A DNA stretch of 64,000 nt from an uncultured Acidobacteriota bacterium. Lineage in GTDB: Bacteria; Acidobacteriota; Thermoanaerobaculia; Multivoradales; JAHEKO01. Shown here in pieces: positions 15,321 to 37,988 of the stretch. Numbering within the stretch: position 1 is the stretch's first letter; the number at the start of each line of letters is the position of its first letter. The position numbers and the translations under genes are program-made. Below the pieces are notes generated by a model. It made no database searches. It had not been told where the DNA came from and worked only from the letters and a program-made list of their open reading frames with translations. The stretch is taken from assembly GCA_963713825.1 (NCBI GenBank), contig CAVQNG010000003.1, positions 1,344,001 through 1,408,000 of the forward strand, read 5' to 3'.

Positions 15321-15350
15321 GTCCTGGGTCCTGAACAAACAATCATGTCC

Positions 15351-15530
15351 GTGTGGAGGCCCGTCCGGGTGGTCCGCAGGGGGACGGCGACGGCTACTCG
15401 GACTGCAACGGGGGGCCGCCGCCTCGTCTCGTCATCGCGCCTCATCTCCTGTGCCCTATCAAGGCTCTTGCGCCGCGCTCGACTCGGCGCCCCCTGTCGA
15501 ACCACCCGAACGACCCTTTGGCACCAACAG
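15351..15530 (-). repeat. ~180-nt structured repeat core, copy A (candidate ncRNA or non-autonomous element)
   Basis: Gap-free match to 37781-37960 (153/180 identical by hand count). Long terminal inverted repeat whose mismatches are mostly G-U pairs on the minus strand. Confidence 0.85.
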
Positions 15531-15586
15531 AGGGACATAAGGGCCTAGAGCAGTAGGGGAGTAAGGGGTGTCGATCGGCTGTTCCT

Positions 15587-15677
15587 CCAAGCCCCAAAGG
15601 CCGGCCGACACGGAGTGCGGCCGGTTCAACCCCCAGGTCCTCAAAATCGTCCGGAGGTACGACCGGACGCCTCAACC
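15587..15677 (+). repeat. Mosaic repeat locus 2: two right hairpin units
   Basis: CCAAGCCCCAAAG-gccggccg..cggccggt-TCAACCC, then cgtccgg-AGGTACGA-ccggacg-CCTCAACC. Confidence 0.8.
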
Positions 15678-15730
15678 TCCAAAGACCCAAGCCCCAGGAC
15701 AATAGGTCTGGGCCGTCGTATACTCCGCCG

Positions 15731-16273
15731 ATGCGCTTGAAGAACGCCACCGTCGTTTCTGGAAGCACCTGCGCCGTCATGGCGCTGATGCTCGTCGCCT
15801 GTCAGGCGGGAAGCCAGGAAGAGCGACTCACCGATGCCCAGAAGAAGGAGCGTCTCGAGGCCCTCTACCAGGGATATCAGAAGTCCTTCCCTTCCATCGA
15901 CAGCATTTCAGTCGAGGAGTTCTTGGAGCTTCAGCAGGGGACGAAACAAGTCGTGCTCGTTGATGTGCGCGAGCCCAAAGAGATGGAAGTCTCTATGATC
16001 CCGGGCGCCATCGACACTGCGACTTTTCAGCGGGAGGCACAGTCCTATCGTGAAGCCATCGTAGTGCCGTACTGCACCGCGGGCTACCGGTCGGGTCTCT
16101 TCACTCAGGAGCTGCAGAAAGCAGGTTGGGATGTACGCAATCTCGAGGGCAGTATCCTGGCCTGGACACTCGCGGGGTTACCGCTGGAGAACACCGAGGG
16201 GCCAACCAAGAGAATTCACGTCTACGGTCGTACCTGGGACCTGGCGGCCGAGGAGTTCTCGACAGTCTGGTAG
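15731..16273 (+). CDS. Rhodanese-like domain lipoprotein
   Basis: Lipobox LVAC; LVDVRE..E..VS.IPGA, active loop YCTAGYRS, NLEGSILAW. Confidence 0.88.
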   Translation: MRLKNATVVSGSTCAVMALMLVACQAGSQEERLTDAQKKERLEALYQGYQKSFPSIDSISVEEFLELQQGTKQVVLVDVREPKEMEVSMIPGAIDTATFQREAQSYREAIVVPYCTAGYRSGLFTQELQKAGWDVRNLEGSILAWTLAGLPLENTEGPTKRIHVYGRTWDLAAEEFSTVW

Positions 16274-16303
16274 CACCGGTCCCTCTCGAGACCCCCGCCG
16301 CAG

Positions 16304-17773
16304 TCAATTGAGATAGCCGAGGGCCCGCAGAGCATTGAGGGTCTCTTCGGAGTAGGCCTCCGATTCTGGATCGGCGACACCCGTTTCGGGCGTGCTCTCC
16401 ATCCACGTCGAAAGAGCCTGCCAGAGTCGATCGAACTCCTCTTCATGCTGGCCCGCGAGATTCTCGGCTTCCAGTGGGTCGGACTGTAGATCGTAGAGCT
16501 CGAAAGCTGGCGCCAACTGTCGGTCGTTTCTCTCGACAGCAGGATGGAAGACGAGCTTCCAACGGCCGTCTTGGACGGAGAAGTAGTGACGCCAGAGCAT
16601 CTGTCCACCGCCGGCCTCCGAGAAGGCGTACCGAAACGGCTCTAGTGCCGCTGTTTCGACGGCTCCCATCGGGCCGAGGAACGGTGTCAGGCTGGATCCC
16701 TCGAGCCCTTCTGGTCCTGCCGTGATCTGCAGGAGATCGCGAAGGGTCGGGTACAGATCCAGCAACTCGGCCGGGTGATCGACCCGCCGGCCTGCACGGG
16801 CCACCCCAGGGTAGGTGATGAAGAGCGGCACATGGGCCGTCGTGTTGTACGGCTCGCGCCCATGTTCGAACAGCTCGTCGTGCTCTCCCAGGCCCTCACC
16901 GTGATCGGAGGTGAAGATCACCAGGGCTCCTTCGAGCAGGCCGAGCCCTTCGAGATGGTCGAGGATGGCGCCGATGTGGGAGTCCGTTACCAGGATGTTG
17001 GCATCGTACTTGGCGATGTAGGAGCCGAGCCGGCGTTCGTCGCCCAGAGCTCTTGCCGGGGGCAGGTCGGCCCCGATCGACTGATCTTGGGTGTCGAAGG
17101 AGTCGCCGAGAAACGGGTCGGAGGCACCCTCCGGTAGCAGATAGGGAGCGTGGGGATCGGAGTAGTGAAGCCAGACGAACAACCGCTCCGAGTCGGCGTG
17201 GCGCTCGAGAGCGGGAATGGCCAGCTGATTGACCAGGGGGGCACCGACCCATTTGCGGTGCTCGACCGGATCGTCACTGACAGCACCTCCCAGCCTCCAG
17301 GTTTCCAGAAACTCGTCGAAGCCCCGATTCCAACCCAGCTCTGCCGAGAGGACGGCATTGGAGACCACGCCCAGGGTGCTGTAGCCAGCAGACTGGAAGA
17401 GCTCGGGCAGGGTCAGGTACTCGTCCGGAATCTGCTGGGCCGCCCTGTGGGTCAAACCCGTTGTCTTGGGATAGCGGCCCGTAAAGATGGAGGCCAAAGA
17501 AGGTCCGGTCTTCGGCCATTGTGCGACTGCGCGGGCAAACGTCACTCCCTGCTCTGCCAACTTGTCGAGGGCCGGAGAAGTCTGTCGGGGATAGCCGTAG
17601 ATTCCCATGTGGTCGGCACGCAGTGTGTCGACCGTGATCAGGAAGACTCTCTTTGGAGGTTCTGGCTCGGAGGGCTGCCGGTTGCAAGCCGCGAGGCCGA
17701 GGAGCAGGATCGCGGTGAGGCATCCGGCGACCCTCGAGTAGGCGCGCTTTGTTGGGGTTCTGGTGAGTCTCAT
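16304..17773 (-). CDS. Sulfatase-like alkaline phosphatase-superfamily lipoprotein (Thr at nucleophile site)
   Basis: Lipobox LAAC; ITVDTLRADH, KTGPSLASIFTG, HYSDPHAPY, TSDHGE, ELYDL..DP.E, C-terminal LRALGYLN. Confidence 0.9.
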   Translation of the reverse strand: MRLTRTPTKRAYSRVAGCLTAILLLGLAACNRQPSEPEPPKRVFLITVDTLRADHMGIYGYPRQTSPALDKLAEQGVTFARAVAQWPKTGPSLASIFTGRYPKTTGLTHRAAQQIPDEYLTLPELFQSAGYSTLGVVSNAVLSAELGWNRGFDEFLETWRLGGAVSDDPVEHRKWVGAPLVNQLAIPALERHADSERLFVWLHYSDPHAPYLLPEGASDPFLGDSFDTQDQSIGADLPPARALGDERRLGSYIAKYDANILVTDSHIGAILDHLEGLGLLEGALVIFTSDHGEGLGEHDELFEHGREPYNTTAHVPLFITYPGVARAGRRVDHPAELLDLYPTLRDLLQITAGPEGLEGSSLTPFLGPMGAVETAALEPFRYAFSEAGGGQMLWRHYFSVQDGRWKLVFHPAVERNDRQLAPAFELYDLQSDPLEAENLAGQHEEEFDRLWQALSTWMESTPETGVADPESEAYSEETLNALRALGYLN

Positions 17774-19170
17774 AGATAACCGAGGCTCCTCAGCTCCTCG
17801 AGCTCATCTTCATCCAAGATGGCGGTCTCGCCGTCCTGACCCGACTGTCGCAGCTCACTCATGGCCCTCTGGTGCCCGACGAGCTGCTCGGCCATCTGTC
17901 CGCAGAGATCGACGCAGGCTGCCGTTCGAGGTGTTTGCTCCTCGGGGTCGGTGCCGAGGTCGTAGAACTCCAGGTGGCCATCGTGAAAACGAATCAGCTT
18001 GTGGGTACTGCTCCGCACTGCGACTGCGTCGGCGCTCTCGGCGAAGATCCAACGCTCGGCTGCGGGCTCACCCAGCATGAGCGGGACCAGGCTTTGGCCT
18101 TGCGCCTGTGGCACCGGGGGAAGGTTGGCGAGCTCCAACAGGGTCGGCATCAAATCGACGAGCCCAGCGGGAGCATCGACCTTTGGGATCGGGGTGCGGC
18201 GGCTCTCCGGCAGACGGAACACCAGGGGAACCCGGATCACCTCGTCGTAGGGAGCGAAACTGTGCAATAGCTTGTCGTGCTCGAGGAAGCCTTCGCCATG
18301 ATCGGACGTCACGACGACGATCGTGTTTTCGTAGAGATCCATTGCCTGAAGGGCACGCATGAGATCGTCGATGGCGGCATCGACGAAGGCCACTTCCTGG
18401 TCGTAGCGCGCGACGAGTGCGTCGAGGTCGGACTCTGACTTGAGGGTCTCGATCCAACCTGCAACACGGTTCCCTCGCTGGGGTGGCTCTGAAGTCATGC
18501 GCAGCGGGCCGAATGCTTCCTGCTTTCCCTCGAGTCGGTTGGTGTAGGGCCAGTGGACATCCAGGTAGTGCAGGTAGGCGAAGAAGGGAGCTGTGCTGGC
18601 GCCCTCGAGTTGCTTCAGGAGCTTTTGGTTCAACTTGCCGGCACCCAGGCCTCGAACAGCCTCGAAATGGTCGAACCCTTGAGCAAAGCCGAAACGGGAC
18701 TGGAGATGGACCTGGTTGAGAACACCGATGGTCGAGTAGCCGGCCGCCTGGAACCTCTCGGCCAGAGTGTCGTATCCCTCGTAGAGAATATCGGTCCTGT
18801 ATGAGTCACCCTCCTGAATACCGACGCGATCGATGCCGTGCTGACCTGGATAGAGCGACGTGAAAAGAGTGGCGATCGAAGGCTTGGTCCAGGTGGAGTG
18901 CGCGAAGGCGGACGTGAAGGTCACGCCCTCCTCTGCCAGTTGGTCGATCGCCGGGGAGGTCGGTAGACCGTAGCCACCGATTCCGAGGTGATCGGCTCGC
19001 AGGGCGTCGATCAGGATCACCAGAACATTGGGTGGTGGCCCCGGATCGATCTCCTGGGCGTCGCGGCCGCAGGCGAGCAGTGACAGTAGGACGAGCGCTG
19101 TGAGCCAGCCTGGGCGGATGTCGCCGATCGGCCAAAACGGACTTGGGAACCTCGACGTCTTGGAGGTCAT
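17770..19170 (-). CDS. Sulfatase-like alkaline phosphatase-superfamily lipoprotein (Thr at nucleophile site)
   Basis: Lipobox LLAC; ILIDALRADH, WTKPSIATLFTS, HYLDVHWPY, TSDHGE, C-terminal LRSLGYL. ATGA overlap with the next gene. Confidence 0.9.
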   Translation of the reverse strand: MTSKTSRFPSPFWPIGDIRPGWLTALVLLSLLACGRDAQEIDPGPPPNVLVILIDALRADHLGIGGYGLPTSPAIDQLAEEGVTFTSAFAHSTWTKPSIATLFTSLYPGQHGIDRVGIQEGDSYRTDILYEGYDTLAERFQAAGYSTIGVLNQVHLQSRFGFAQGFDHFEAVRGLGAGKLNQKLLKQLEGASTAPFFAYLHYLDVHWPYTNRLEGKQEAFGPLRMTSEPPQRGNRVAGWIETLKSESDLDALVARYDQEVAFVDAAIDDLMRALQAMDLYENTIVVVTSDHGEGFLEHDKLLHSFAPYDEVIRVPLVFRLPESRRTPIPKVDAPAGLVDLMPTLLELANLPPVPQAQGQSLVPLMLGEPAAERWIFAESADAVAVRSSTHKLIRFHDGHLEFYDLGTDPEEQTPRTAACVDLCGQMAEQLVGHQRAMSELRQSGQDGETAILDEDELEELRSLGYL

Positions 19171-19361
19171 TCGCCTGCCTGCTCCTGATCTGGGATGATC
19201 GTTTTGTGGTTGCGGGACGCTCGGCGTCCGAATTGATCCAAGCAGCCGTCAGCATATCACCGGGTCTCGAGGCGATGGTGGCGTCGAGGGCGGGCGGGGC
19301 ACCCGCCCGGTGGGGCCTTCCAATAGAATCGATGGTGCTCGACGGCGAGGCAAGCTAAGGA

Positions 19362-20750
19362 ATGCACAGGTCAGCACAAATCTTGGGATTGGTCATTGTG
19401 ACCCTGGTCGCCGGCTGTGGTCGCGAGGAAGTGACTCAGGGTCCACGCCTCCAGAGCTCGGCTGCGGGCTGGAACCTGATTCTGATCAGTGTAGATACCG
19501 TGCGGGCCGACCGCTTGGGCGCCTACGGATATGCCGAGCGCCCATCCAGTCCCAACATCGATGCGCTGCTGGCGTCAGGAGCCAAATTTCAACGTGCCAT
19601 GGCTCCCAGAGCCCTCACCTGGCCTTCGATGGCCTCGGTGCTCACGGGGCTCTATCCATCCGGCCACGGGCTGATCTCGAACGGGTACGAGTTCTCCGAC
19701 GCCACCCGCACGTTGCCGAAGATCTTGGGTGATGCCGGGTACCAGACGGGGGCTGTGCTCAGCAATATGTGCCAGGCGAACCACCAGGGATGGGAGAGCT
19801 TCAAGTGCACGGGAGGTAACGACACCCGCGTCAACCGGGTGGCGAAGCAGTGGATCGATGGGATCGAAGACGGGCGGCCATTCTTCCTCTGGGCGCACTA
19901 TTTTGGTGCCCACGCTCCGTACTACAACGGCGGCATCGTGGCCCGCCGGGTGCTGAATCAGTACTACGAAGGTCCGATCGCAGCTAAGAAGAACATGCTC
20001 AACCGGGTGATGCGTGAAGGCCTCGAGCTGAGCGAGGACGACTTGACTCAGTTGGATGCGGTCTATGACGCGGCGGTGATGGGAACCGATCAGTTTGTCG
20101 GTGAGCTGCTGGACTATCTGCGTGAGGCTGGCCGATTGGACAGCACACTGATTGTCTTCGTGGCGGATCACGGGGAGGACCTCTACCAGCACAACGGCTA
20201 CCTCTACCACGCCTGTTCCGTGTACCAGTCGTCCTTGCACGTGCCGCTGGGTTTCGTAGCCCCAGGCGTGCTTCCCGCAGGGGCGACTGTCTCCCAGACC
20301 GTCGAGTTGATCGATGTGCTGCCTACCATTCTGGAGCTGCTCGCACTGGACGAAGAGGGTGAGCTCCACGGCAGGTCCCTGATTCCCTATCTGGAGTGGC
20401 CCGACTCCAGTATTGAAGGTGAGCCGGCTTTCTCCGAATACGACGACACTCGGATTCACACCGTTCAAGTCGGTGACTGGAAGCTTGTAGACAACCCGGA
20501 TGCGGTCCTGCCGGTCTGTTTCGCGGGCGTCCCGGAGGACTTCTACCCGATTGCGGAGGTGGAGCTCTACGATCTCTCCGAGGATCCGGGCGAGACCGTC
20601 AATCTGGCTTCGAAGTACCCAGAGAAGGTGGCTGAGATGCGGGCATTGATTCGGCAGCGCTTTGCGTCGCTGCCCCGCAACATCGAGCATCAGGAGATCC
20701 CAGAGGAGCTGAAAGAGCAACTGGAGGCTCTTGGCTACGTGGCCAACTGA
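19362..20750 (+). CDS. Sulfatase-like alkaline phosphatase-superfamily lipoprotein (Thr at nucleophile site)
   Basis: Lipobox VAGC; ISVDTVRADR, LTWPSMASVLTG, HYFGAHAPY, VADHGE, C-terminal LEALGYVAN. Confidence 0.9.
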   Translation: MHRSAQILGLVIVTLVAGCGREEVTQGPRLQSSAAGWNLILISVDTVRADRLGAYGYAERPSSPNIDALLASGAKFQRAMAPRALTWPSMASVLTGLYPSGHGLISNGYEFSDATRTLPKILGDAGYQTGAVLSNMCQANHQGWESFKCTGGNDTRVNRVAKQWIDGIEDGRPFFLWAHYFGAHAPYYNGGIVARRVLNQYYEGPIAAKKNMLNRVMREGLELSEDDLTQLDAVYDAAVMGTDQFVGELLDYLREAGRLDSTLIVFVADHGEDLYQHNGYLYHACSVYQSSLHVPLGFVAPGVLPAGATVSQTVELIDVLPTILELLALDEEGELHGRSLIPYLEWPDSSIEGEPAFSEYDDTRIHTVQVGDWKLVDNPDAVLPVCFAGVPEDFYPIAEVELYDLSEDPGETVNLASKYPEKVAEMRALIRQRFASLPRNIEHQEIPEELKEQLEALGYVAN

Positions 20751-20776
20751 CCCCTAGACCCGATTTGGAGGCTGGC

Positions 20777-21895
20777 ATGACCGAGACAGATAGCGACAGG
20801 GTGAAGTTCTATCGATCGTTTCTGCTGCTAATGGTGGTAGCCATCTCGGCACTCTTCTTCACCATGATCCGGGATTTCTTGATGACCCTGTTGCTGGCGG
20901 CCATCTTCTCCGGCCTGGCCTATCCGCTCTACCGACGTCTGAACAAGAAGTCGGGAGATCGGAAGGTGTTGGCGTCCGCTACCACTATTCTCATTGCCAT
21001 TCTGGTTGTCGTTATTCCGCTGACGGCCCTGCTGGGTCTGATTGCCAATGAGGCGTTCCAGATCAGTCAGGTGGTCAAACCGTGGATCCAGGAACAGATC
21101 AGCCAGTCCAGCGGAGTGGCGGAGCGCTTGCCCGCTTGGGCTCAGCCCTGGCTCGAGAGGTTGAATCCCTTCAGGGATCAGATTCTCGAGAAGACGGGTG
21201 AGATCACCGGCATGGCTGGGAACTTTCTGTTCAAGAGTCTGTCGGCTACCACCCGAGGAACGGTGTCATTCTTCCTACACCTCTTCGTGATGCTCTATGC
21301 GATGTTCTTCTTCTTGATGGACGGCCCGACGTTGATTCAGAAGGTCCGTTCCTTTCTGCCGCTCCGGGAGTCCGACAAGGACCTCATGGAAGAGCGCTTC
21401 ATGTCGGTTACCAGGGCCACGATCAAGGGCACCTTTGCGATTGGTGCCATTCAGGGTCTTCTCGGTGGCGTCGGCTTTGCGGTGGCCGGCATCCAGGGAT
21501 CGATCTTCTGGGCCGCGCTCATGGGGGTGCTCTCCGTCATCCCCGGAGTCGGAGCAGCGATCATCTGGGCTCCGGTGGTGATCTATTTGTTGGCAACGGG
21601 AGATATCTTCGCGGGAGTCGCCTTGCTGGCATGGTGTGCGGGGGTAGTGGGGACCGTCGACAATGTTCTGCGACCGCGATTGGTGGGCAAGGACGCCAAG
21701 ATGCCTGATCTGCTGATCCTGTTGAGCACTCTCGGCGGCATCGTCATGTTCGGGGCGGTGGGCTTCATCATCGGGCCGATTGTGGCGGCCCTCTTTCTCA
21801 CCATCTGGGACATGTATGGTGCGGCCTTCCAGGATGTGCTACTGCCCGCGACCTATCGCAGTGGCCCGGAAGGTGATTCGGAAGCACCACTTTGA
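20777..21895 (+). CDS. AI-2E family transporter
   Basis: FFFLMDG, IPGVGAAIIWAP, DNVLRPRLVG, LGGI..FG..GFIIGP. ATG 20777 follows GGAGG. Confidence 0.92.
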   Translation: MTETDSDRVKFYRSFLLLMVVAISALFFTMIRDFLMTLLLAAIFSGLAYPLYRRLNKKSGDRKVLASATTILIAILVVVIPLTALLGLIANEAFQISQVVKPWIQEQISQSSGVAERLPAWAQPWLERLNPFRDQILEKTGEITGMAGNFLFKSLSATTRGTVSFFLHLFVMLYAMFFFLMDGPTLIQKVRSFLPLRESDKDLMEERFMSVTRATIKGTFAIGAIQGLLGGVGFAVAGIQGSIFWAALMGVLSVIPGVGAAIIWAPVVIYLLATGDIFAGVALLAWCAGVVGTVDNVLRPRLVGKDAKMPDLLILLSTLGGIVMFGAVGFIIGPIVAALFLTIWDMYGAAFQDVLLPATYRSGPEGDSEAPL

Positions 21896-21913
21896 GACTC
21901 GAGTCGAGCCCGG

Positions 21914-23092: not shown

Positions 23093-23103
23093 GCAACGAA
23101 CCT

Positions 23104-25805: not shown

Positions 25806-25912
25806 GTCTGAACCCAATCGGAATCGGCGAATGCAAGGCTACACCGTCCGAATCTCCTGGACCAACACGAACTTGCACCGTTAGAAGCAACAGAGGGGCA
25901 TAGGGCAGTTGT

Positions 25913-26037
25913 GGCTTAGGGGCCTAGGGGAATGGGAGGGGGCCCCACTGCCGCAAAGGTAGGCCGGAGGGACGACGGACTCCTCAACCCCCAAGCCCTC
26001 AAAGACCGGCCAAAGGTACGCCGGCCGCCTCATCCCC
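25913..26037 (+). repeat. Mosaic repeat locus 3: TAGGGG octamers plus two hairpin units
   Basis: ggcttaggggcctagggg, then CAAAG-gtaggccg-GAGGGACGA-cggactcc-TCAACCC and CCAAGCCCTCAAAGAC-cggcc..AGGTACG..ggccg-CCTCATCCC. Confidence 0.75.
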
Positions 26038-26040
26038 TTA

Positions 26041-30487: not shown

Positions 30488-30508
30488 TCACTGCCCCGCA
30501 AAGCTGGT

Positions 30509-31264: not shown

Positions 31265-31803
31265 TCTTCTTCTCCTTCCAAATCGTCCGGCAGCAGGGCA
31301 TAGAGGAACAAGTCCATCAGCCGGCCATTCTTGAAGACACCCTTCCGGAGGCGACCTTCCAGGCTGAAGCCAGCCTTCTCCAGGACTCGACAAGAAGCCG
31401 GATTGATCTCGTAGACATGGGCTTGGATGCGCGCAAAATCCAACTCCCGAAAAGCCCAGCGGGTGAAGACCTGAAGAGCGCGGGTCGCAACGCCCTGTCC
31501 CCAGAAAGGTTCACCGAGCCAATACCCCACCTCGGCGGTGCGACGAAAAACGTCGTCGCGCAGCAGCAATCCGATGCCGCCGATCAGCTCGTCGGGAGTG
31601 GCGAGTGCGAAGCTGATTTCTGGATCCTGTTCGTGGGCTGCCTGTAGCCACTCGTGGGCCGCTTCTTCGGTGTAGGGGTGCGGAAAGTGGTCCAGGAGTT
31701 GGCCTGCAATGGCCGCGTTGTTGGCGTACTTCATGAGCGCTGCCACGTCACCGTCGTCGTAGCTGCGGATGAGGACGTCCCCTTTTCCGATGGGCAGTCT
31801 CAT
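31252..31803 (-). CDS. GNAT N-acetyltransferase (RimJ/RimL-like)
   Basis: FPHPYT, EVGYWLGEPFWGQG, NPAS.RVLEKAGF..EG. Confidence 0.92.
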   Translation of the reverse strand: MRLPIGKGDVLIRSYDDGDVAALMKYANNAAIAGQLLDHFPHPYTEEAAHEWLQAAHEQDPEISFALATPDELIGGIGLLLRDDVFRRTAEVGYWLGEPFWGQGVATRALQVFTRWAFRELDFARIQAHVYEINPASCRVLEKAGFSLEGRLRKGVFKNGRLMDLFLYALLPDDLEGEEEWNG

Positions 31804-32864
31804 GAGGTTGTGGGGGTGCCCTGCGCGGCGGACGGATCGAGAACGGCGGCACCTTCGATGGTGCCGGATCGCAGTCGCTCGAGCGCCAGGTTGGCCTGGG
31901 TCAGTGGGAAGACCTCGATCTGGGACTGCACGGGCACACGAGGCGCGACTTCGAGGAACTCCTCTCCGTCTTCGCGGGTCAGATTGGCGACGGAGCGAAC
32001 GACCCGCTCCCCCCAGAGGAGGTCGTAGGAGAAGGCCGGTATCTCACTCATGTGAATGCCGGCGCAGACTACGATGCCCGCCTTGCGTACCGCCCGAAGC
32101 GACAGGGGGAGCAAGGCTCCGACCGGGGCGAAGAGAATTGCGGCATCAAGCTCTTCCGGGGGAAGCTCGTCGGAAGCCCCTGCCCAGATTGCACCGAGCC
32201 GTCTGGCGAAAGCTTGACCCTCTTTGTCGCCCGGTCGGGTGAAGGCATAGACCTCCCTTCCCTGGTGTCGAGCGACCTGCGCGATGATGTGGGCGGCCGC
32301 GCCGAATCCGTAGAGACCGACTCTGTGAGCCTCGCCGGTCATGCGAAGAGATCGAAAGCCGATCAGTCCTGCACAGAGCAGGGGAGCGGCCTCGAAATCC
32401 GAGAAGCTCTCGGGGATGGGGAAGCAATACCGTGCATCGGCGAGTGTGTACTCGGCATATCCACCGTCGATTTGGTAGCCGGTGAAGCGGGCCTGGTCAC
32501 AGAGGTTCTCCCGACCTCCGGTGCAGTAATCGCATTTGCCGCAGGTCCAGCCCAGCCACGGTATGCCGACTCGCTGCCCTGTCTCGAGGCCGTCGACGTT
32601 GGGACCGAGCGCCGCCACCGTGCCGACGATCTCATGGCCCAGGACGAGCGGCAGCTTGGGCTCGTCGAGGTCTCCGTCCACGACATGCAGGTCGGTGCGG
32701 CAGACCCCGCAGGCCGTCACACGAATAAGCACCTGGCCGGGGCCACACCGGGGTGTCTCAATCTCCACCAAGCGGAGTGGGTCCCCGACTCGCTCGAAGA
32801 GCATAGCCCTCATGGTCGCTGGTGGGGCTGGGCTTTCCGGTTTTGTAGCGATATTGGTCATCAA
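31800..32864 (-). CDS. Zinc-dependent alcohol dehydrogenase
   Basis: GVCRTDLH, LGHEIVG, CGKCDYC..GRENLC, APLLCAG, GLYGFGAAAH. Confidence 0.95.
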   Translation of the reverse strand: MMTNIATKPESPAPPATMRAMLFERVGDPLRLVEIETPRCGPGQVLIRVTACGVCRTDLHVVDGDLDEPKLPLVLGHEIVGTVAALGPNVDGLETGQRVGIPWLGWTCGKCDYCTGGRENLCDQARFTGYQIDGGYAEYTLADARYCFPIPESFSDFEAAPLLCAGLIGFRSLRMTGEAHRVGLYGFGAAAHIIAQVARHQGREVYAFTRPGDKEGQAFARRLGAIWAGASDELPPEELDAAILFAPVGALLPLSLRAVRKAGIVVCAGIHMSEIPAFSYDLLWGERVVRSVANLTREDGEEFLEVAPRVPVQSQIEVFPLTQANLALERLRSGTIEGAAVLDPSAAQGTPTTS

Positions 32865-33226
32865 TCGTCGAGCGGCCCGCTGACCATCGCTTCGATGAAA
32901 TCTGCGATCTGCAGCAGTTGATCCACGCTCATCGAGCCTACTGTGCTACGCACGACCGAGGGAAGCACCCTCCCGGCAGTTCCAAGTGCCACTTCCACTC
33001 CTTTGCGCCGGATGGTGCCCACACCGACCAGCTCCAAGGGGTGGAGAAAGAAATAGGTCAGCCCGGTGTGGGTCAAATCGATAACCAGGTCGATCAAGTC
33101 GGCCACGACCTTGCGGTCGGCGGGATCCTTCCGCAATGCAGACACAACCTCCGAGATCCTGGTGTACTGGACCGGGTCGATCTCGAAGGCGACTCTGCCG
33201 CCACTGCCGGTCTTACTCGTCGTCAT
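32861..33226 (-). CDS. Hypothetical helical protein
   Basis: 121-aa ORF tightly packed in the operon (13 bp after the amidohydrolase stop, 4-bp overlap with ADH). Confidence 0.7.
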   Translation of the reverse strand: MTTSKTGSGGRVAFEIDPVQYTRISEVVSALRKDPADRKVVADLIDLVIDLTHTGLTYFFLHPLELVGVGTIRRKGVEVALGTAGRVLPSVVRSTVGSMSVDQLLQIADFIEAMVSGPLDD

Positions 33227-33238
33227 GATCGAATCAGC

Positions 33239-35245
33239 TCACTGGCCAACGCCGATGGCCTGGTACATTTCGGTTGGGCGAAAAATCGTGCCGTCCTTCA
33301 CCGTCAGCGTCACCTTGCGGATATCCGACATGTCTGCGATGGGATCTCCATCGATGAGGACGAAATCAGCCAACTTGCCGACCTCGATGCTGCCCAGCCG
33401 TTCGGCTCGACCTGCGATCTTGGCTGAGCCCAGTGTCGCCAGGCCCAACACTTCGGCTGGCGGAATTCCCGCTTCCACATAGAGCTCCAGCTCACGGTGC
33501 AGCCCGAAGCCGGCCAGGGTGTCGGTTCCGGCCACGATCGGAATCCCTGCTCGGTAGACTTCTCCGACCATCCTGACCATCACTCTGAAGGAGCGCTCGT
33601 AGCGCTCCTCCTCGCCAGCGGGTGGTTCCAGGCCACCGCCCATCATGCCTCGGCGAACCTGCGGCGGCAGCCGATGGATGATGGGCTTCCAGGTGACCGG
33701 CACGATGCCGGGACGAGCCGTGAACATGCCTTCGAAAATGGCGATCGTCGGATCCACGATGATGGCCTTCTGACGCAGGAACTCGAAGAAGGCGAGGGTC
33801 TCGGGGGCCTCGAAATCGAAGTCCGCGGCGCGTTGGGCCACCTCGGTGAAGCGGGCCGGTGTGCGCGTATCGATCCCTTCGTCGCCCCAGAAGGTCAGGA
33901 ACAGCATGTTGGCGTGTTGAATCTCGTCGAAGCCGTCCTTGATCGCCTGCTCGGCCGTCATGCCATTGGGTATGTGACCACTCACCCGCATGCCCCGATG
34001 GTGTGCTCGCTCGGCCATGTAAGGCACCAGCTCGGGCAGGACCGAGCTGTAGATTTTGATCTGCTCGAAGCCCAGGTCGCCGTAGCGATCGATGGCCACC
34101 CTGGCCTCTTCCTCGGTGTCGACCAGAATCTTGGTGGGTCCGGCATAGGGTCCAGGGCCATCGATGAAGCCGGACAAGATGAGTCGTGGGCCGACGGCTG
34201 TACCCTCCTGCCATGCGAGCCTGAGGGCCAGGGCTTTGTCGATGTCATTGGCCATGTCCCGCACCGTCGTCACTCCGGCGGCGAGATTGAGAATTCCATC
34301 GAGGTCGCCGACGTGGGTGTGCATGTCCCAGAGGCCTGGCATGAGAAGCTTGCCGCCAGCATCGATGACCTCGACCTCCTTCGGCAGCTCCAGGGTGCCA
34401 TCCTCTCCGACAGCCCGGATGGTGTTGCCGACCACGAGGACCGTCTGGCCGTCGACGGGCTTCTCTCGGGTGGCGTCCCAAACGCGAGCGTTTTCGAAAG
34501 CCACTCCGTGCTCGGGTTGATGCGCGAGGCGCCCAACCAGCCCTGCTGTCCAGGCGGTGTTGGCGGCATCGTCGATCCGCGCCATCTCCTCACCGATCGA
34601 CTCCCAGCCCTCCGGCAGGAACGAGAACCACATGCTGGTAGCGCCGAAGAACTCATTCTTCTCGTCGAGCCAGATAAACGTCGGGGAGAAGCCGAGGCCG
34701 GTAAGGGAGACATGGCGGAGGTTCTTCGTCCGACCTTCGGTCGAGAAAGTCCTTTCTCCCACGATTTCGAGGTGTGCTTCGCCATCCGGTAGAAGGTCGA
34801 TAAGCTGATCGGGCGAGGTGAGCAGTGCCCTGGCGAGAAGCCCCAGCTCGGGGCAAGCGCTCTCCCGGCTGAGGTAGAACGCGGCCCCCGCGAGGGGTCT
34901 GTCGTCCTTCTCCTGACTGTTCTGCCAGCGTACCGCCCCCCCACTCCAACTGAAGCTCTCATCGACCGCGGCCTTCATGTAGTCGTTACCCGTGGTGGCG
35001 ATCTCTCTTGGCAGTCCGTCGTCACCGAGGACGACACGGGTGTCGAGATTCGGTCCACGGCCGCGGTCGTTGAACTCGAAGTGACACTGCAGCTCTCCGG
35101 GCTCAGGAGTCTCGATCTCCATGAAACCGGCCGGATTGCCCTGGATCAGCACTACCCATTTTTCGGCCGAAGCCGGGGCAGTGGCGATCATCAGAACGGT
35201 CGCGAGCAGAGGTGGCAGCCGGAGCCAGGGCCAGGATTGGTTCAT
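33239..35245 (-). CDS. Secreted metal-dependent amidohydrolase
   Basis: Signal peptide; LMPGLWDMHTH, GVTTVRD, IKIY, SGH, IQH, AGTD, GKLADFVL. Confidence 0.92.
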   Translation of the reverse strand: MNQSWPWLRLPPLLATVLMIATAPASAEKWVVLIQGNPAGFMEIETPEPGELQCHFEFNDRGRGPNLDTRVVLGDDGLPREIATTGNDYMKAAVDESFSWSGGAVRWQNSQEKDDRPLAGAAFYLSRESACPELGLLARALLTSPDQLIDLLPDGEAHLEIVGERTFSTEGRTKNLRHVSLTGLGFSPTFIWLDEKNEFFGATSMWFSFLPEGWESIGEEMARIDDAANTAWTAGLVGRLAHQPEHGVAFENARVWDATREKPVDGQTVLVVGNTIRAVGEDGTLELPKEVEVIDAGGKLLMPGLWDMHTHVGDLDGILNLAAGVTTVRDMANDIDKALALRLAWQEGTAVGPRLILSGFIDGPGPYAGPTKILVDTEEEARVAIDRYGDLGFEQIKIYSSVLPELVPYMAERAHHRGMRVSGHIPNGMTAEQAIKDGFDEIQHANMLFLTFWGDEGIDTRTPARFTEVAQRAADFDFEAPETLAFFEFLRQKAIIVDPTIAIFEGMFTARPGIVPVTWKPIIHRLPPQVRRGMMGGGLEPPAGEEERYERSFRVMVRMVGEVYRAGIPIVAGTDTLAGFGLHRELELYVEAGIPPAEVLGLATLGSAKIAGRAERLGSIEVGKLADFVLIDGDPIADMSDIRKVTLTVKDGTIFRPTEMYQAIGVGQ

Positions 35246-35359
35246 GAATCCTCCAAGAAGATCGGGAGAAGCTGGTGCCTCGAAAGAACTGCTGGGAACG
35301 GTTCGACTCTAGCACGGGGGTTGAAGGCCCCCGGCGAGCCGCCATCGTCGTCCAGGTCT

Positions 35360-36385
35360 CTATGCGGCACACCAGAAGTCGACCGTCTCGAGCAGGTCCA
35401 GAGACTCGAGTCGTTGACGAATTAGAGCCCGGGCTCCCCTCGAGGAGACCGCCGCCACCAGGACTCGACTGGTCGTTTCCTCCAGCAGTTGGGGAAGATC
35501 CTCTGGCGAATGGACAGGCCTGTTTCGCAATGTGCCACCGATCTTGGCGGTGTCGATGTCGATGAATGTCGTGACCGAAGCACCCTCCCGGATCAGATGC
35601 TTCGACAGGCGTCGGCCGGTCTGACCGGCGCCCCAGACGATGACACTGTCCACGCCCTTCAGAGGCCCGTGGGTCAGATGATGGGCCTTGCACGCGAGAA
35701 AACGCTCGACGGCGTAGCGGGGATCTGTGAAGGTCAGCCTCCCTTCGTGGTGTCGCCAGAAGTACAGCTCCTCGGGCACCTTGCCGAACCGCTTGCCGGC
35801 CGCAGCCAGCCGGAGCCAGAGATCGTAGTCCTCGGGGAATCCCACTTCACGATAGCCTCTCGCCTCTTCCAGCACGGATCGACGCACCATCGCCGCTGGG
35901 TGCGGGATGGGGCTCTCGATGAACCGCTCGCGGAGGATCTGGTCGTGGGTCACCAGGCTGTTGAGCCAGCCCTCGTAGATTCGCAGGCCTTCGCGAAGGG
36001 TCTCGTCCGGGAAGTGGGTCACCAGGCTGGCGACCACGTCCAGGTCGGGAGAGTCCTCGAACGCCTGCGCTTGGAGCTCCAGCCGCCTGGGGTGCACCTT
36101 GTCGTCAGCATCCATCCGTGCGATGAGCTCTCCTCGGCAGGCGGAAAGACCCGCGTTTAGAGTTTCCACCAGCCCCGAATGAGGTCGGGTCAAGACTCGG
36201 ATGCGGGAATCTCGGGAGCACCAGACTTTCAGGATCTCTGCCGACCCGTCGCTGGACCCATCGTCCACAGCCACGATCTCGAAGTCCTCGAAGCTCTGCT
36301 CGAGGAGGCTGGCGAGGCACTCATCGAGAAATTTCTCGCCGTTGAAGATCGGCAGAAGAACGGAGATGGTGGGCGAGGGAGGCAC
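35360..36385 (-). CDS. Glycosyltransferase family 2
   Basis: ISVLLP.FN, VDDGSSD, ARMDADD, EDYDLWLR, C-terminal WGAG.TG Rossmann-like domain. GTG start inferred. Confidence 0.9.
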   Translation of the reverse strand: MPPSPTISVLLPIFNGEKFLDECLASLLEQSFEDFEIVAVDDGSSDGSAEILKVWCSRDSRIRVLTRPHSGLVETLNAGLSACRGELIARMDADDKVHPRRLELQAQAFEDSPDLDVVASLVTHFPDETLREGLRIYEGWLNSLVTHDQILRERFIESPIPHPAAMVRRSVLEEARGYREVGFPEDYDLWLRLAAAGKRFGKVPEELYFWRHHEGRLTFTDPRYAVERFLACKAHHLTHGPLKGVDSVIVWGAGQTGRRLSKHLIREGASVTTFIDIDTAKIGGTLRNRPVHSPEDLPQLLEETTSRVLVAAVSSRGARALIRQRLESLDLLETVDFWCAA

Positions 36386-36504
36386 GGTACCTGGAGCTCC
36401 GGTGGTTCGATAGGCGCGGGCAAGTGTAACCTTCCGGAAACGCCGTTCCGCCGGGCCTCGTCCAGCCGGCAGAGCCCGCCGCTTCCACAACGGGAGTCAA
36501 AGTC

Positions 36505-36930
36505 ATGTGCGATCACTATCGGAAGCTCGAGCGGATGTACCTTTCCGCACCGGTCAATCGGATCTACTCTCCAAAGATTCAGATCGACGAGGGCCGAGCC
36601 GTCGTCGAGATCAAAGTCGGCGAACAGTTCTTCCACGCGGCAAATGCGGTCCACGGTGCGGTCTACTTCAAGGCCCTCGATGACGCCGCATTCTTCGCGG
36701 CGAACTCCCTCGTCACGGACACCTTTGTTCTTACGGTCTCGTTCAATGTCTACTTCACACGTCCCGTGAGAGAAGGAACGCTGCGTGCGGAGGGTCGAGT
36801 TGTCAGCCGCTCGAAGAGCCTCATCATTGCCGAGGCCGTCCTTTTCAACGGCGACGTCGAAGTGGCTCGCGGCAGCGGGTCCTTCGTTCCGAGCAAGATC
36901 GAGCTGTCGGAGAAGCTCGGCTACTGCTGA
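36505..36930 (+). CDS. PaaI-family hotdog thioesterase
   Basis: HAANAVHGAVYFKALDDAAFFA. Confidence 0.88.
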   Translation: MCDHYRKLERMYLSAPVNRIYSPKIQIDEGRAVVEIKVGEQFFHAANAVHGAVYFKALDDAAFFAANSLVTDTFVLTVSFNVYFTRPVREGTLRAEGRVVSRSKSLIIAEAVLFNGDVEVARGSGSFVPSKIELSEKLGYC

Positions 36931-36934
36931 GTCC

Positions 36935-37720
36935 TCACTCGAGCTTCTCGACAGGCAGCTGGAGGTCGTCTGGAAGGCTGCCACGCAGCGCTGTCTCGTA
37001 GAAGCGTCGTCGCAGCTCCATTCCCTCCTCGGGAGTGAGGTCTCCCGGCTCGCCCCAGGCGCGGCGGCGGGACTCGACGGCCCAGGACAATGTGACGGCA
37101 GCTGCGACGGAGATATTCAGGGATTGAGAGAGCCCATAGAGGGGTATCACAAAGGTCCCGTCGCAGGCCTCGATGAGCTCCGCGGGAAGTCCCTTGGACT
37201 CGTTGCCGAAGAGGATCGCCATAGGCCTGGTGAAGTCCATCTCCGTGAGGGGTAGGGCGCCTTCGTTGAAGGCAGCCGCGTAGAAAGCCAGGCCCCGATC
37301 CCGCAGCTGGTTCTGGGCGCTGGCAAAGTCGGAGTGCTCGATGACATCGATCCAGCGGTGCGCATTCTGGGTGATTCGTGGGCTGGCATGGAGGGAGCGT
37401 CCCTCTGTGCTATGGATGAAGTGGAACTCTTGCAGGCCCAGGGCCTCGCAGCTGCGCATGACCGCCGCCTGGTTGTGCGGGTCGTGAACGCCGTGCAGCA
37501 CCGGCACCAGTGTGCGAGTTCGATGGCGGATGGCCTCTTCGAGACGGAAACGCCGCACAGGGTTGAGCAGGCCCCGGTCGCGAAAGGCTTGCAGCTCCGC
37601 GGGGAACTCGTCGGTGAGCCTCTCCAAGTCGGCCAACTGCTCCTCGGTCGGCGGCGGCTTGGGCGTGCGGCCGCCCCTCGGTGAGGGTGTCCCATCGGCT
37701 CGCAATCTGCGCTTGGTCAT
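36935..37720 (-). CDS. trmH: SpoU/TrmH-family tRNA 2'-O-methyltransferase
   Basis: DPHN.AAVMRSCEA.G, ILFGNE..G, IPLYG..QSLNISVAAA. Confidence 0.85.
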   Translation of the reverse strand: MTKRRLRADGTPSPRGGRTPKPPPTEEQLADLERLTDEFPAELQAFRDRGLLNPVRRFRLEEAIRHRTRTLVPVLHGVHDPHNQAAVMRSCEALGLQEFHFIHSTEGRSLHASPRITQNAHRWIDVIEHSDFASAQNQLRDRGLAFYAAAFNEGALPLTEMDFTRPMAILFGNESKGLPAELIEACDGTFVIPLYGLSQSLNISVAAAVTLSWAVESRRRAWGEPGDLTPEEGMELRRRFYETALRGSLPDDLQLPVEKLE

Positions 37721-37780
37721 GCCTGCTGTTCAGTATAAGGGCACCAGGAGGTCCTGGGTCCTAGGCAGATGACTACGATT

Positions 37781-37960
37781 GTGTGGAGGTTCGTCCGGGT
37801 GGTCCGCAGGCGGACGGCAGCGGCTACTCAAACTGCAACGGGGGGCCGCCACCTCGTCACGTCTTCGCGCCGGATCTCGCGTAGTCTTCGATGGCTCTTG
37901 CGCTGCGCTCGACGAGGCGCCCCCTGTCGAACCACCCGAACGAACCTCTGGCACCAACAA
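37781..37960 (-). repeat. ~180-nt structured repeat core, copy B
   Basis: Colinear with 15351-15530 at offset 22430. On the minus strand a 21-bp closing stem (two G-U) gaggttcgttcgggtggttcg/cggaccacccggacgaacctc. Confidence 0.85.
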
Positions 37961-37988
37961 GGGGCATAAGGGCCTAGGGCAGTAGGGG

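Follow-up and report, generated by a model that had tools for sequence, protein, structure and literature searches.

A strand-specific three-way junction fold in a dispersed intergenic repeat family of uncultured Thermoanaerobaculia (Acidobacteriota)

Introduction

ERIC, pneumococcal BOX and Neisseria Correia elements are imperfect palindromes of 100-200 nt that are intergenic and often co-transcribed. These families are, to our knowledge, sequence-defined and limited to a genus or family; BOX elements are modular, and for several of the families no mobilising enzyme is known or has been proven. Compared with these families, the element described here keeps a branched, covarying fold across 12 or more genera of one family and in four other families, and the sequence of its long stem turns over while the fold stays.

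HEARO/IscB omega-RNAs, IS605-orfB/TnpB RNAs and IS110 bridge RNAs resemble the element in length (about 150-300 nt), strong structure, many copies per genome, and covariation that was seen before function was known. HEARO RNAs were in a similar position before IscB was understood, and partnerless structured multi-copy repeats with strong covariation formerly pointed to new RNA-guided or ssDNA-acting machinery. The element differs from these mobile-element RNAs in having no Rfam match, no TnpB domain, no copy at an IS110 end and no common adjacent ORF. Integron attC sites are likewise strand-specific folded imperfect palindromes, with structure kept more than sequence, variable terminal structures and large numbers in some chromosomes; element copies, in contrast, are dispersed in both orientations among housekeeping genes and not arranged in cassette arrays.

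REPINs are described as abundant non-coding repeats whose ssDNA or mRNA is predicted to fold into long hairpins, with compensatory changes across the hairpin (PMC3116915). Both REPINs and the element are abundant, intergenic and long-lived, and both occur in higher-order mosaics with other repeats. A REPIN, however, consists of two short inverted REPs and a spacer and is mobilised by a RAYT transposase, whereas the element folds into a three-way junction of 180 nt whose interior motifs are conserved, its arm sequence is not kept between genera, and no Y1/RAYT gene is flanked by it.

Two copies in the window and the wider family

The window is the whole 64,000-nt stretch of DNA that was analysed, and it holds two copies of the element, A and B (Table 1). 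Alignment confirmed the ungapped match reported in the first-pass annotation, and a repeat search of the window widened it to 215 nt at 81% identity. The likeness is not due to chance, given a BLAST E value of 4.5e-54 in the 5.4-Mb genome. Nearly half of the differences (13 of 27) lie at RNA positions 69-89, the P2 terminal loop, in agreement with the earlier remark that divergence is focused in one internal segment.

Table 1. Positions of the element copies, their structural parts and the adjoining repeat modules in the window
Feature	Position	Strand	Remarks
Copy B, ~180-nt element	37781..37960	- (functional sense)	Covariance model 192.1 bits minus vs 42.5 plus; MFE -96.1 kcal/mol (z -5.44) minus vs -86.2 (z -3.03) plus
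Copy B P1/P1b closing stem, 5' arm (GAGGUUCGUUCGGGUGGUUCGACAGGGGG)	37920..37948	-	Pairs with 37786-37814; 26 pairs
Copy B P1/P1b closing stem, 3' arm	37786..37814	-	Purine/U-C partner pattern
Copy B arm P2	37855..37919	-	Basal helix, GCGC/GCGC helix, variable terminal loop 37871-37904
Copy B arm P3, conserved loop AGUYUGAGUAG	37816..37853	-	Covariation; RNAalifold on MAFFT alignment
Copy A, same element	15351..15530	-	Covariance model 188.4 bits minus vs 20.9 plus; MFE -91.4 kcal/mol (z -2.98) minus vs -84.7 (z -2.17) plus; 153/180 positions identical to copy B
Copy A P1/P1b, 5' arm	15490..15518	-	Alignment A2, columns as copy B
Copy A P1/P1b, 3' arm	15356..15384	-	Alignment A2
Copy A arm P2	15425..15489	-	Tandem G.A present (majority form); loop 15441-15474 variable; family alignment
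Copy A arm P3	15386..15423	-	Family alignment
Module W beside copy B, degenerate 9-mer repeats (GGGGCNTAA-like, plus strand)	37961..38027		Adjoins RNA-5' side of most copies
Module Z, two hairpin-repeat units (CGTCCGG...CCGGACG core)	38074..38184		Repeat families D2 and D4
W and Z modules beside copy A	15531..15694		Repeat families D3 and D4
Heptamer-repeat module (GGTCCTGGGTCCT) with linker, RNA-3' side of copy B	37750..37780		Common to 13-28 of about 84 copies
Same GGTCCTGGGTCCT heptamer module beside copy A	15311..15350		Repeat of copy B module

The earlier description as a duplication holds inside the window but understates the genome, in which the proposed BLAST count returned 83 copies of at least 100 nt. 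These are spread over all large contigs, in both orientations and among housekeeping genes, and 81 of the 83 are intergenic by our own crude gene calls. Spacers between convergent genes are enriched: they make up 607 of the 3206 spacers in the genome but hold 41 of the 81 placed copies. The element was found by blastn in all five other species of the genus (5/5). Among the 45 genomes of the family (own genome, G000, included) a covariance model detected diverged relatives in 27, representing 12 of 20 genera, and it did so in 7 of 128 genomes from other families of the order, where four families are represented. Five genomes of other genera carry 13 to 35 covariance-model matches each. In this uncultured Thermoanaerobaculia (Acidobacteriota) lineage the family has amplified, reaching tens to about 100 copies in each genome.

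Seventeen of 26 testable loci in other species coincide with the position of a G000 copy. Nearest-neighbour identity among copies has a median of 0.885 and a maximum of 0.967; with no near-identical copies, recent mobility is not demonstrated. A 1-nt indel is polymorphic within the element at alignment column 123 (G 36, gap 18, C 1, A 1), which argues against coding.

Fold and strand sense

A 26-bp stem, P1/P1b, closes the three-way junction that the element forms on the minus strand; within the genus, 97.6-100% of the cells of this stem are paired. The long closing stem and the P3 helix of the first-pass annotation are both present. The same annotation had placed the structure within a separate repeat scaffold, a view that is abandoned here, as the closing stem is itself part of the conserved fold. 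The 5' arm of the stem in copy B carries three UUCG motifs with CGRR opposite each, and in the 3' arm A and G interchange freely opposite U while G opposite C is almost invariant.

In copy B the basal helix of P2 contains a C-A mismatch and a site for either a tandem G-A or two Watson-Crick pairs. The two sides of the previously proposed P2 register (cgcctcgtc/gacgaggtg) are truly complementary in that copy, but family-wide evidence favours a register offset by five. In the offset register the tandem G-A ascribed to copy A is the majority state of the family and not a peculiarity of that copy. The P2 loop keeps a common frame among copies, AAG..CC....AG..CAC...AGAU, and the P3 loop has the family consensus AGUYNGAGUAG. 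The unpaired gagta segment noted earlier belongs to this conserved P3 loop. One subfamily does without the loop and has a small GTAG-tagged palindromic repeat in its place; the roughly 10 copies of this nested form in the genome speak for amplification as a unit.

Both copies fold more stably and score far higher with the covariance model on the minus strand (Table 1), and the earlier observation of C-A mismatches on the plus strand that become G-U pairs on the minus strand of the closing stem was reproduced. Among 69 own copies read in the minus sense, G-U outnumbers A-C by 288 to 26 in P1, 64 to 7 in P2 and 117 to 1 in P3. The asymmetry recurs in 38 distant copies (P1 39 vs 8; P1b 27 vs 0), of which 30 are more stable on the sense strand. 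One G-U pair at the junction is almost invariant (68/69 copies).

Covariation and selection

The paired fraction within the genus is 94.9% of cells, a level reached by none of 500 shuffles. In a cross-genus alignment of 45 copies the paired fraction is 91.3% against 64.8% after shuffling, both-side changes occur at 49 of 50 modelled pairs against 34.9 in shuffles, and the covariation score is 0.622 against 0.158, falling to at most 0.086 when partners are slid; this alignment was fitted to the model, and kinship among copies inflates the shuffle tests. A structure-blind MAFFT alignment analysed with RNAalifold recovers the P2 base, P2b and P3, giving 15 pairs, 13 of them compensatory. The proximal stem of P3 has eight pairs, 96.8-97.8% paired, and seven of the eight have changed on both sides across genera. 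Alternative pairs also segregate in P2, at columns 45-110 (C-G 25, U-A 24, G-C 7), 46-109 (GC 49, CG 7) and 49-106 (G.A 36, UA 13, AU 5).

At the position of copy B, inspection by eye found five P1 changes between G000 and G003/G004 and two between G000 and G001, all pair-preserving, and one P1 change at this position in other species is a double change from U-A to C-G. Single-sequence MFE folds contain P1 in 45 of 45 copies, P3 in 26, P2b in 18 and P2a in 9; the interior helices therefore rest on comparative evidence. Between genera the arms of the closing stem are the least conserved part in sequence and free to vary, while the interior, including the junction, keeps conserved nucleotides.

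The earlier proposal of a single-stranded RNA or ssDNA structure under selection is supported by these data, and the refuting outcomes named with it did not occur: further copies keep their pairs within and across genera and match nothing in Rfam. It may well be that selection preserves a single-stranded fold of the window's minus strand and not the terminal sequence, a reading that we hold with moderate confidence.

An ordinary double-stranded MITE, in which the stem would serve as transposase-bound terminal inverted repeats and the structure would be a by-product with no single-stranded role, is decidedly improbable. The element does have the general build of one, being short (about 180 nt), non-coding, multi-copy (83 copies) and intergenic with 26-bp inverted arms, and it is enriched between convergent genes; inverted repeats co-varying between subfamilies would also be expected of transposase sites. 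However, the arms are least conserved between genera while the interior holds conserved nucleotides and covarying P2 and P3, and the P1 wobble asymmetry also speaks against this reading. Target sites point the same way. No direct repeat of at least 3 nt was found at any of 36 offset combinations, the right-hand boundary being imprecise in some copies, and the closest approach was a 2-mer, seen in 10 of 65 copies (permuted mean 6.1, maximum 12). Furthermore, no longer element bears the same arms: in the own genome all 97 of 97 core BLAST HSPs are short non-coding copies or fragments, and the lone kb-scale interruption, of 1.3 kb, is an insertion in P3 of an unrelated IS that has inverted repeats of its own.

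Search for a known family and a mobilising enzyme

The recommended Rfam search gave no match to the element, in line with the first-pass failure to recognise a known RNA class. There were no matches in the window at gathering scores and none in four own loci at E <= 1, while seven loci of other genera and families gave only a chance miRNA match (E 0.92) outside the element. No Rfam 15 family (6S, HEARO, IS605-orfB, ribozymes, riboswitches) gave a covariance-model match to the element at these loci. The suggested comparison with IS110 and IS200/605 was also carried out and revealed no IS110, IS200/605 or TnpB link. The non-coding ends of three IS110 elements contain no copy (best match 10.2 bits, E 0.071), and the TnpB zinc-ribbon PF07282 has no match in the genome, which is 96% complete; for the IS110 and TnpB genes covered, an IS110 bridge RNA or IS200-605 omega-RNA encoded beside its partner gene is not supported. 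Nor is an integron attC site, given dispersed copies and stem ends where no conserved GTTRRRY/RYYYAAC core sites were seen by eye. The branched fold matches no described family, whether RNA (Rfam) or mobile element (IS110, IS200/605, TnpB and Y1 links).

Tests of transposase, reverse transcriptase and TnpB links found no mobilising enzyme, and clustering of 307 flanking proteins with Pfam annotation of neighbours found no shared neighbouring ORF. PF00078 reverse transcriptase has no match in G000, G001, G004, G005, G051, G058 or G020, although each of these genomes is rich in copies (G004 is 100% complete), and this speaks against a retroelement-borne RNA such as a group II intron or retron. 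No clean empty site was found; the two aligned polymorphic loci hold differing repeat mosaics.

RNA or single-stranded DNA

Our preferred reading, to which we attach middling confidence, is a MITE/REPIN-like amplifying repeat with a single-stranded fold under selection, most likely as RNA. The two stretches would be members of an amplifying family of non-coding intergenic elements with a MITE/REPIN-like lifestyle, dispersed, patchy in distribution and divided into lineage-specific subfamilies. The predicted fold is a nearly perfect three-way junction combining a sequence-free closing stem with P2 (GCGC/GCGC helix and G.A/A.G site) and P3, and it would act as RNA, produced when the intergenic region is transcribed. 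This RNA could be what a trans-acting factor recognises when it copies the element, a module that the host keeps, or both. We infer that the element is mobile and that it may serve a function. RNA appears more likely than ssDNA, which is the main alternative.

Under that alternative, which is possible but doubtful, the fold would act as ssDNA, a REPIN- or attC-like substrate copied or recombined in trans by an HUH or tyrosine enzyme. Pairing is strand-specific regardless of the direction of flanking transcription: tandem-spacer copies are randomly oriented relative to flanking genes (14 sense, 15 antisense), and mean paired fractions of 0.956 to 0.978 are equal across orientation classes (Mann-Whitney p = 0.67), so read-through transcription cannot explain the strand-specific selection. 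These orientation results also weigh against our preferred reading. Copies are numerous, dispersed and patchy between families, those of other genera showed no conserved promoter by eye, and the genome encodes Y1 HUH genes; the cited account of REPINs as ssDNA or mRNA hairpins with common compensatory changes (PMC3116915) also fits. The Y1 genes, however, do not track the element. No covariance-model match at E <= 1 lies within about 1.5 kb of 17 Y1_Tnp loci (four in the own genome, six from a second search and seven of the ten from a third), and the window's repeat modules have no match near the four own-genome genes. A 313-aa Y1-like protein was not found in G023 and G058 (16 and 35 element copies) yet has 23 copies in G015, a genome without the element, and G146 has three element copies and no PF01797 match. 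The ssDNA reading is also disfavoured by the lack of bias toward the G-rich (leading) strand (39 vs 40), by GTT/AAC core sites not seen by eye at stem ends, by the lack of array organisation, and by the many conserved G-U pairs, the junction pair among them, together with a G-U/U-G pair in the P3 loop by our own reading. Conserved G-U pairs and G-U/U-G loop pairs are more usual in RNA.

A REP-RAYT system was rejected: no RAYT gene flanked by the repeats was found among the 17 Y1 loci, and the phyletic patterns of Y1 and element disagree. The arms are genus-variable and without a conserved tag, unlike a REPIN with two inverted 20-40-nt REPs and a GTAG or CGTC tag.

Transcription is weakly indicated by a 394-nt RNA-library contig that matches 37486-37879 exactly, the remainder of the 2.9-kb stretch being uncovered; strand is not readable in these contigs, and DNA carry-over is possible. 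In principle each copy could independently encode a small RNA that acts in trans, expressed from a promoter of its own and using the variable loop as guide or antisense segment. The element has one functional strand and one variable loop, copies are present in RNA-library contigs, and the P2 loop of copy B, although it varies among paralogs, is the same in G000, G003 and G004. Nevertheless, this is very improbable. Over eight position-matched pairs (four of 12 were left out where the G000 partner was not full length) 72 of 272 P2-loop sites differ (0.265), near the 0.30 of random paralogs, so the loop is not conserved locus by locus; it also shares the common frame described above, and neither a conserved promoter nor a U-tract terminator was seen by eye, including beside copies of other genera.

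More speculatively, and with rather low probability, the element may be the RNA (or ssDNA) component of an undescribed mobile or regulatory system, a conserved three-way-junction scaffold for a putative trans-acting protein. If true, both the variable P2 loop and the long stem of free sequence would serve a function and not be leftovers. If the element is merely a selfish repeat, it would show that in such repeats a branched single-stranded fold, and not the terminal sequence, can be the target of selection. The family offers hundreds of natural variants of one fold from a poorly studied phylum, with the strand assigned and a covariance model ready.

Companion modules and nested repeats

The core is accompanied by further repeat modules (Table 1). 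Module W is absent beside the position-matched copy in G001 and is therefore separable from the core, the module Z part of the query has about 117 BLAST matches in the genome, and the GGTCCTGGGTCCT heptamer repeat also occurs without the core. Even as a mere selfish repeat, the element would account for many of the contig breaks in these metagenome-assembled genomes and for many of their intergenic mosaics. Longer covariance-model matches of about 226 nt recur in G005 and may carry a nested palindromic insert too, and a separate GTAG-tagged REP-like family in the genome inserts into the element.

Family size and genomic placement

The element belongs to a three-way-junction repeat family that extends across a bacterial order and is larger than first reported. 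The first-pass annotation had described a duplicated element, and the window does hold two copies, A and B (exactly two by R1, the covariance model (CM) of the element), which a repeat search of the window returned as a 215-nt direct repeat of 81% identity. Their gapless 180-nt alignment (153/180 identical) was reproduced, as was the reported clustering of divergence in one segment, with 13 of the 27 differences falling within RNA positions 69-89. As a duplication, however, the description does not stand, since the source genome, G000, carries 83 copies of at least 100 nt.

The G000 assembly was searched whole (5.4 Mb, 38 contigs, 96% complete). A first search, in which 40 of 138 candidates were scored, gave at least 43 matches at E ≤ 0.001, and blastn, the copy-number search that the annotation had suggested, returned 97 HSPs, of which 83 are the copies of at least 100 nt and 71 reach 150 nt, two of these 71 being contig-end duplicates of a third. 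The 69 full-length copies share a median pairwise identity of 0.81; identity to the nearest neighbour is 0.885 at the median and 0.967 at most. An exact 29-mer of one arm recurs in 38 stretches from five further metagenome-assembled genomes whose titles read Thermoanaerobaculia or Acidobacteriota bacterium, and the taxon assignment is based on this. Small G000 contigs (C13, C14 and C16 at their ends, and C26/C27) repeat the ends of larger contigs, element copy included, and the repeats are probably the cause of these assembly breaks.

Gene calls from a crude codon-usage caller, which placed 3861 genes on 84% of bases, leave 81 of the 83 copies in intergenic positions. Convergent-gene spacers hold 41 copies (607 such spacers genome-wide) and divergent-gene spacers 11 (625), while tandem spacers hold 14 copies sense and 15 antisense to the genes (1974 spacers for both tandem classes together), and two copies lie at contig ends. 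Copies therefore favour gene 3' ends, without orientation preference relative to transcription. No replication-strand bias was found (G-rich strand, 39 versus 40).

A strand-specific three-way junction

The fold is strand-specific and under selection. Within the genus, 56 minus-strand copies were aligned, 30 from G000 and 26 from five other species, the latter chosen through the exact 29-mer in the 5' arm, so that this arm is biased. The closing stem, P3 and a GCGC/GCGC helix emerged from RNAalifold, and pair statistics resolved a three-way junction of P1 (21 pairs) with P1b (5 pairs), P2a, P2b and P3. In P2a, column i pairs with column 155 - i, a register fixed by columns 45-110 (C-G 25, U-A 24, G-C 7) and 46-109 (G-C 49, C-G 7). 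The P2 register proposed in the first-pass annotation can form in copy B, because GACGA is tandemly repeated there, but it is not the one fixed by these comparative statistics. Columns 49-50 and 105-106 form a tandem G.A/A.G in 35-36 copies and two Watson-Crick pairs otherwise, with A-U accompanied by U at column 106 in 5/5 cases. Overall, 94.9% of cells are paired, compared with 37-49% for slid partners, and 9 pairs show two-sided changes, where shuffles give 3.5. The observed values were reached by 0/500 shuffles on four of five measures; on the fifth, further standard pair types, the observed number was reached by 24/500. A coding reading of the element was rejected on account of an internal 1-nt indel polymorphism, and a hammerhead-like core was rejected by inspection, as the junction strands measure 0, 1 and 1 nt and the hammerhead motif CUGANGA/GAA is absent.

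By folding energy, both copies fold better on the minus strand, at -91.4 kcal/mol (z -2.98) versus -84.7 (z -2.17) on the plus strand for copy A and -96.1 kcal/mol (z -5.44) versus -86.2 (z -3.03) for copy B. Wobble pairs were counted on 69 G000 copies picked by whole-element BLAST, with P1 giving 1437 Watson-Crick, 288 G-U, 26 A-C and 40 other cells, P2 giving 709, 64, 7 and 116, and P3 giving 629, 117, 1 and 12, respectively; these cell counts overstate the asymmetry because the copies share ancestry. Counted by site, seven consensus pairs are G-U and one conserved mismatch is C.A. The 5' arm carries UUCG three times, with CGRR opposite each time, and the purines opposite U are polymorphic (U-A 40/U-G 21; U-G 51/U-A 10; U-A 46/U-G 20; U-G 37/U-A 26), while the G opposite C is replaced by A in no more than 4 of the 69. 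When the two sites of highest variability are left out, Watson-Crick pairs turn by transition into G-U 36 times and into A-C 23 times; since this excess is modest, the wobble asymmetry is real but carried by particular sites. In 38 distant copies, G-U outnumbers A-C by 39 to 8 in P1 and by 27 to 0 in P1b, and 30 of the 38 fold more stably as the sense strand, a comparison that is partly circular, as the CM itself prefers the pairing strand. Better structure in copies sense to the upstream gene was rejected, the mean paired fraction being alike across all four orientation classes (0.956 to 0.978; p = 0.67).

Distribution and fold beyond the genus

Outside the genus, blastn matched 0 of 35 genomes, whereas R1 matched 21 more genomes of the family, representing 11 further genera, with E between 1e-6 and 1e-14. 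Between 13 and 35 matches occur in each of five genomes of other genera. When other families of the order were sampled evenly, R1 matched 7 of 128 genomes, distributed over families f3 (2/8), f7 (1/21), f8 (1/21) and f10 (3/10), with none in seven families. The match in G146, a genome of another family, is among the best scores outside (79 bits). Element copies are also present in G023 and G016, which like G146 are complete genomes. The unpublished genome G006 is counted in tallies only, and no claim is based on it.

Distant copies retain the long stem with wholly different sequence and pairing kept, together with recurring motifs, namely (G/A)AGCGCA, CCGGCGCG, a junction A-GG, CCGU after P3 and an AGUYNGAGUAG-like P3 loop. 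Across genera, 45 copies were aligned to the CM, an alignment that hence leans towards the CM, with 91.3% of cells paired as against 64.8% after shuffling. Two-sided changes affect 49 of the 50 pairs (shuffles 34.9) and 509 cells (shuffles 131.7), and the covariation score is 0.622 (0.158 shuffled; slid partners at most 0.086). Pairing by helix was 96.5% for P1, 93.6% for P1b, 76.9% for P2a, 100% for P2b and 96.8% for P3; the three distal P3 pairs, only 56-67% paired, are unsupported. Because the alignment leans towards the CM, RNAalifold was run on a second alignment, made by MAFFT from 38 copies (three from other families). The prediction comprised 15 pairs, in the P2 base, P2b and P3 (nine pairs), and compensatory changes occur at 13 of the 15; P1 was missed because MAFFT cannot align its arms. 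Single-sequence folds recovered P1 in 45/45 copies, P3 in 26/45, P2b in 18/45 and P2a in 9/45.

Gene neighbours and repeat mosaic

Copy A is flanked by a GntR-family regulator with an ABC ATPase on one side and a rhodanese-domain gene on the other, and copy B by the genes of an unnamed 480-aa protein and a SpoU-family methylase, the latter gene lying at 36935-37720 of the window. Neighbours in other genera include an asparaginase, an acyl-CoA dehydrogenase, an H+-pyrophosphatase, endonuclease III and a sigma-70 factor, among others. A Pfam search of 23 proteins, in which the Y1 and IS110 controls also matched, assigned the neighbours to ordinary metabolic and regulatory families, and no recurrent partner gene was found among 307 clustered flanking proteins. 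The sole large flanking cluster (15 proteins), a sulfatase family, is not enriched, because the genome as a whole encodes 126 such proteins by the union of three BLAST queries; this large paralogous sulfatase-domain family is represented within the window as well. Upstream of the GntR-family gene, a near-perfect palindrome, TAGTGCTATGCAAGTATATAGCACTA, is conserved in the congeneric species G004 and, with changes, in G003, and is probably the operator of this regulator.

Most copies carry degenerate 9-mer repeats (W) on the RNA-5' side and, beyond W, either hairpin repeats (Z) or structured repeats X or Y of about 130 nt each; some also have a GGGTCCT heptamer run on the RNA-3' side. About 117 BLAST hits in G000 cover the Z hairpin part of the query. 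The core can occur apart from these companion modules, since the G001 copy at the position of copy B has the core and neither W nor Z. Other dispersed intergenic repeats occur in the window, where these repeat families have no Rfam match. Head-to-head pairs of copies, with the 5' ends facing and 27 to 257 nt between them, occur at five loci of other genera. Coordinates are collected in the table.

Coordinates of the element copies and associated features (C, contig of G000; L, locus in a comparison genome)
Feature	Location	Strand	Remark
Copy A	window 15351-15530	minus	
Copy B	window 37781-37960	minus	
Other dispersed intergenic repeats	window 4532-4590, 15626-15694, 25886-26020, 38074-38184		hairpin repeat and degenerate 9-mers included
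Sulfatase-domain family member	window 16304-17773		
GntR-family gene	window 14802-15200	minus	
Palindrome	window 15222-15247		just upstream of GntR-family gene
-10-like box at copy B	window 37732-37737	minus	conserved in four species; similar in several loci of other genera
RNA-library contig	window 37486-37879		
Head-to-head pair	L096:1501-1902		
Head-to-head pair	L098:1501-1935		
Head-to-head pair	L103:1297-1682		
Head-to-head pair	L107:535-982		
Head-to-head pair	L112:1066-1682		
Y1-like gene	G000:C3:1031156-1032094		three more loci in G000; family noted also in G015, G053
GTAG-tagged repeat in P3 loop	G000:C3:766479-767979		outside the window
GTAG-tagged repeat in P3 loop	L073:930-2250		
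GTAG-tagged repeat in P3 loop	L086		G005 locus matching copy A

Known families and mobilising enzymes

The family could be matched neither to a described RNA family nor to any mobilising enzyme tested. The earlier statement that the element resembles no known RNA class agrees with Rfam, which gave no match in the window at gathering scores or at four G000 loci at E ≤ 1, and a single hit, a chance miRNA match outside the element, at seven loci of other genera and families. Similar DNA was not found in plasmid and phage collections (blastn, 'distant' mode), nor the exact 29-mer in viral contigs. The literature searched contained no description of the element and none combining Thermoanaerobaculia, repeat and intergenic.

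A link to RAYT (Y1 HUH) transposases was rejected on flank, locus and phyletic results. A family of 313-363-aa proteins with an N-terminal Y1_Tnp (HUH) domain occurs in 35 of 45 genomes of the bacterial family, with four genes in G000, none of which has the repeat modules of the window beside it, and 17 Y1 loci gave no CM match at E ≤ 1. The Y1-like protein was not found in G023 (16 element copies) and G058 (35 copies) and is abundant (23 genes) in G015, which has no copies; in G146 element copies are present and the Y1_Tnp model PF01797 is unmatched. PF01797 matches 28 times in G143, which belongs to a different family of the order. A reverse transcriptase link was rejected, none being present in G000, G001, G004, G005, G051, G058 or G020, as was a TnpB link, none being found in G000. 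Three IS110 elements contain no element copy; one adjoins a truncated core and is read as inserted into it. No target-site duplication was found at the copies, nor a longer element with the same arms among the 97 BLAST HSPs of G000. None of the tested candidates is thus linked to the element. In lifestyle the element is like REPINs and structured MITE-like repeats; it is unlike them in enzyme link, end sequences and target-site duplication. It is conceivable, if rather improbable, that the element is the nucleic-acid part of an undescribed system.

Signs of amplification, and conservation after insertion

Indirect signs of amplification are provided by the separate subfamilies of each genus, the patchy distribution between families, the positions of loci and a P3-insert subfamily. 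Loci in other species with a unique G000 flank number 26, of which 17 have a G000 copy within 700 nt and the other 9 have none at that distance. About 10 G000 copies have a nested GTAG-tagged palindromic doublet in place of the P3 loop, and the longer CM matches of about 226 nt that recur in G005 may carry the same insert. Clean empty sites were not found, the two aligned polymorphic loci carrying other repeat mosaics. The GTAG-tagged palindromic repeat in the P3 loop, TGTAGGGGAGCCCC, is REP/REPIN-like, and a 1.3-kb IS with a 343-aa ORF, inserted at this point, has that sequence as its inverted ends. On contig C26 an IS110-family element abuts the GTAG-tagged repeat; IS110 relatives target REPs.

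The copy A locus holds a truncated remnant in G003 and G004, and copy B is present at the same position in G001, G003 and G004. Between G000 and G003/G004, the element differs by about 7%. Identity is 83% over a 597-nt HSP that takes in the element, the spacer and the 5' portion of the SpoU-family gene, compared with 77-79% for the flanking genes. By eye, all five P1 changes between G000 and G003/G004 keep the pair, one converting U-A to C-G, as do both P1 changes in G001. A guide-like, locus-specific P2 loop was rejected, since eight position-matched pairs diverge nearly as paralogs do (0.265 differences per site versus 0.30 for random paralogs). In the P2 stems, matched pairs are even further apart than paralogs, since a different P2 subtype occupies the matching position in other species, which suggests conversion between copies or re-insertion.

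RNA or single-stranded DNA

Action as RNA is favoured because of the many conserved wobble pairs, the almost invariant junction G-U and the tandem G.A site, which are weighed here as RNA motifs. Action as single-stranded DNA would accord with the lack of orientation bias to genes and with the lack of a visible promoter, no conserved one being seen upstream of copies in other genera. For the favoured RNA reading, a metatranscriptome library offers a weak hint of transcription, namely a 394-nt contig identical to the window that bridges the SpoU-family gene start, the spacer and 99 nt of copy B, such contigs being strandless and DNA carry-over possible. The rest of the 2.9-kb stretch is uncovered, library X19 having nothing in 37964-39700 or below 37479, and missing cover proves nothing; in the sister libraries X20 and X21, cover is limited to repeat parts of other copies. 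Many copies precede a gene with a -10-like TATACT or TACAAT box 6-13 nt before its start codon, which places the element just upstream of a promoter and suggests leaderless or near-leaderless mRNAs in this lineage.
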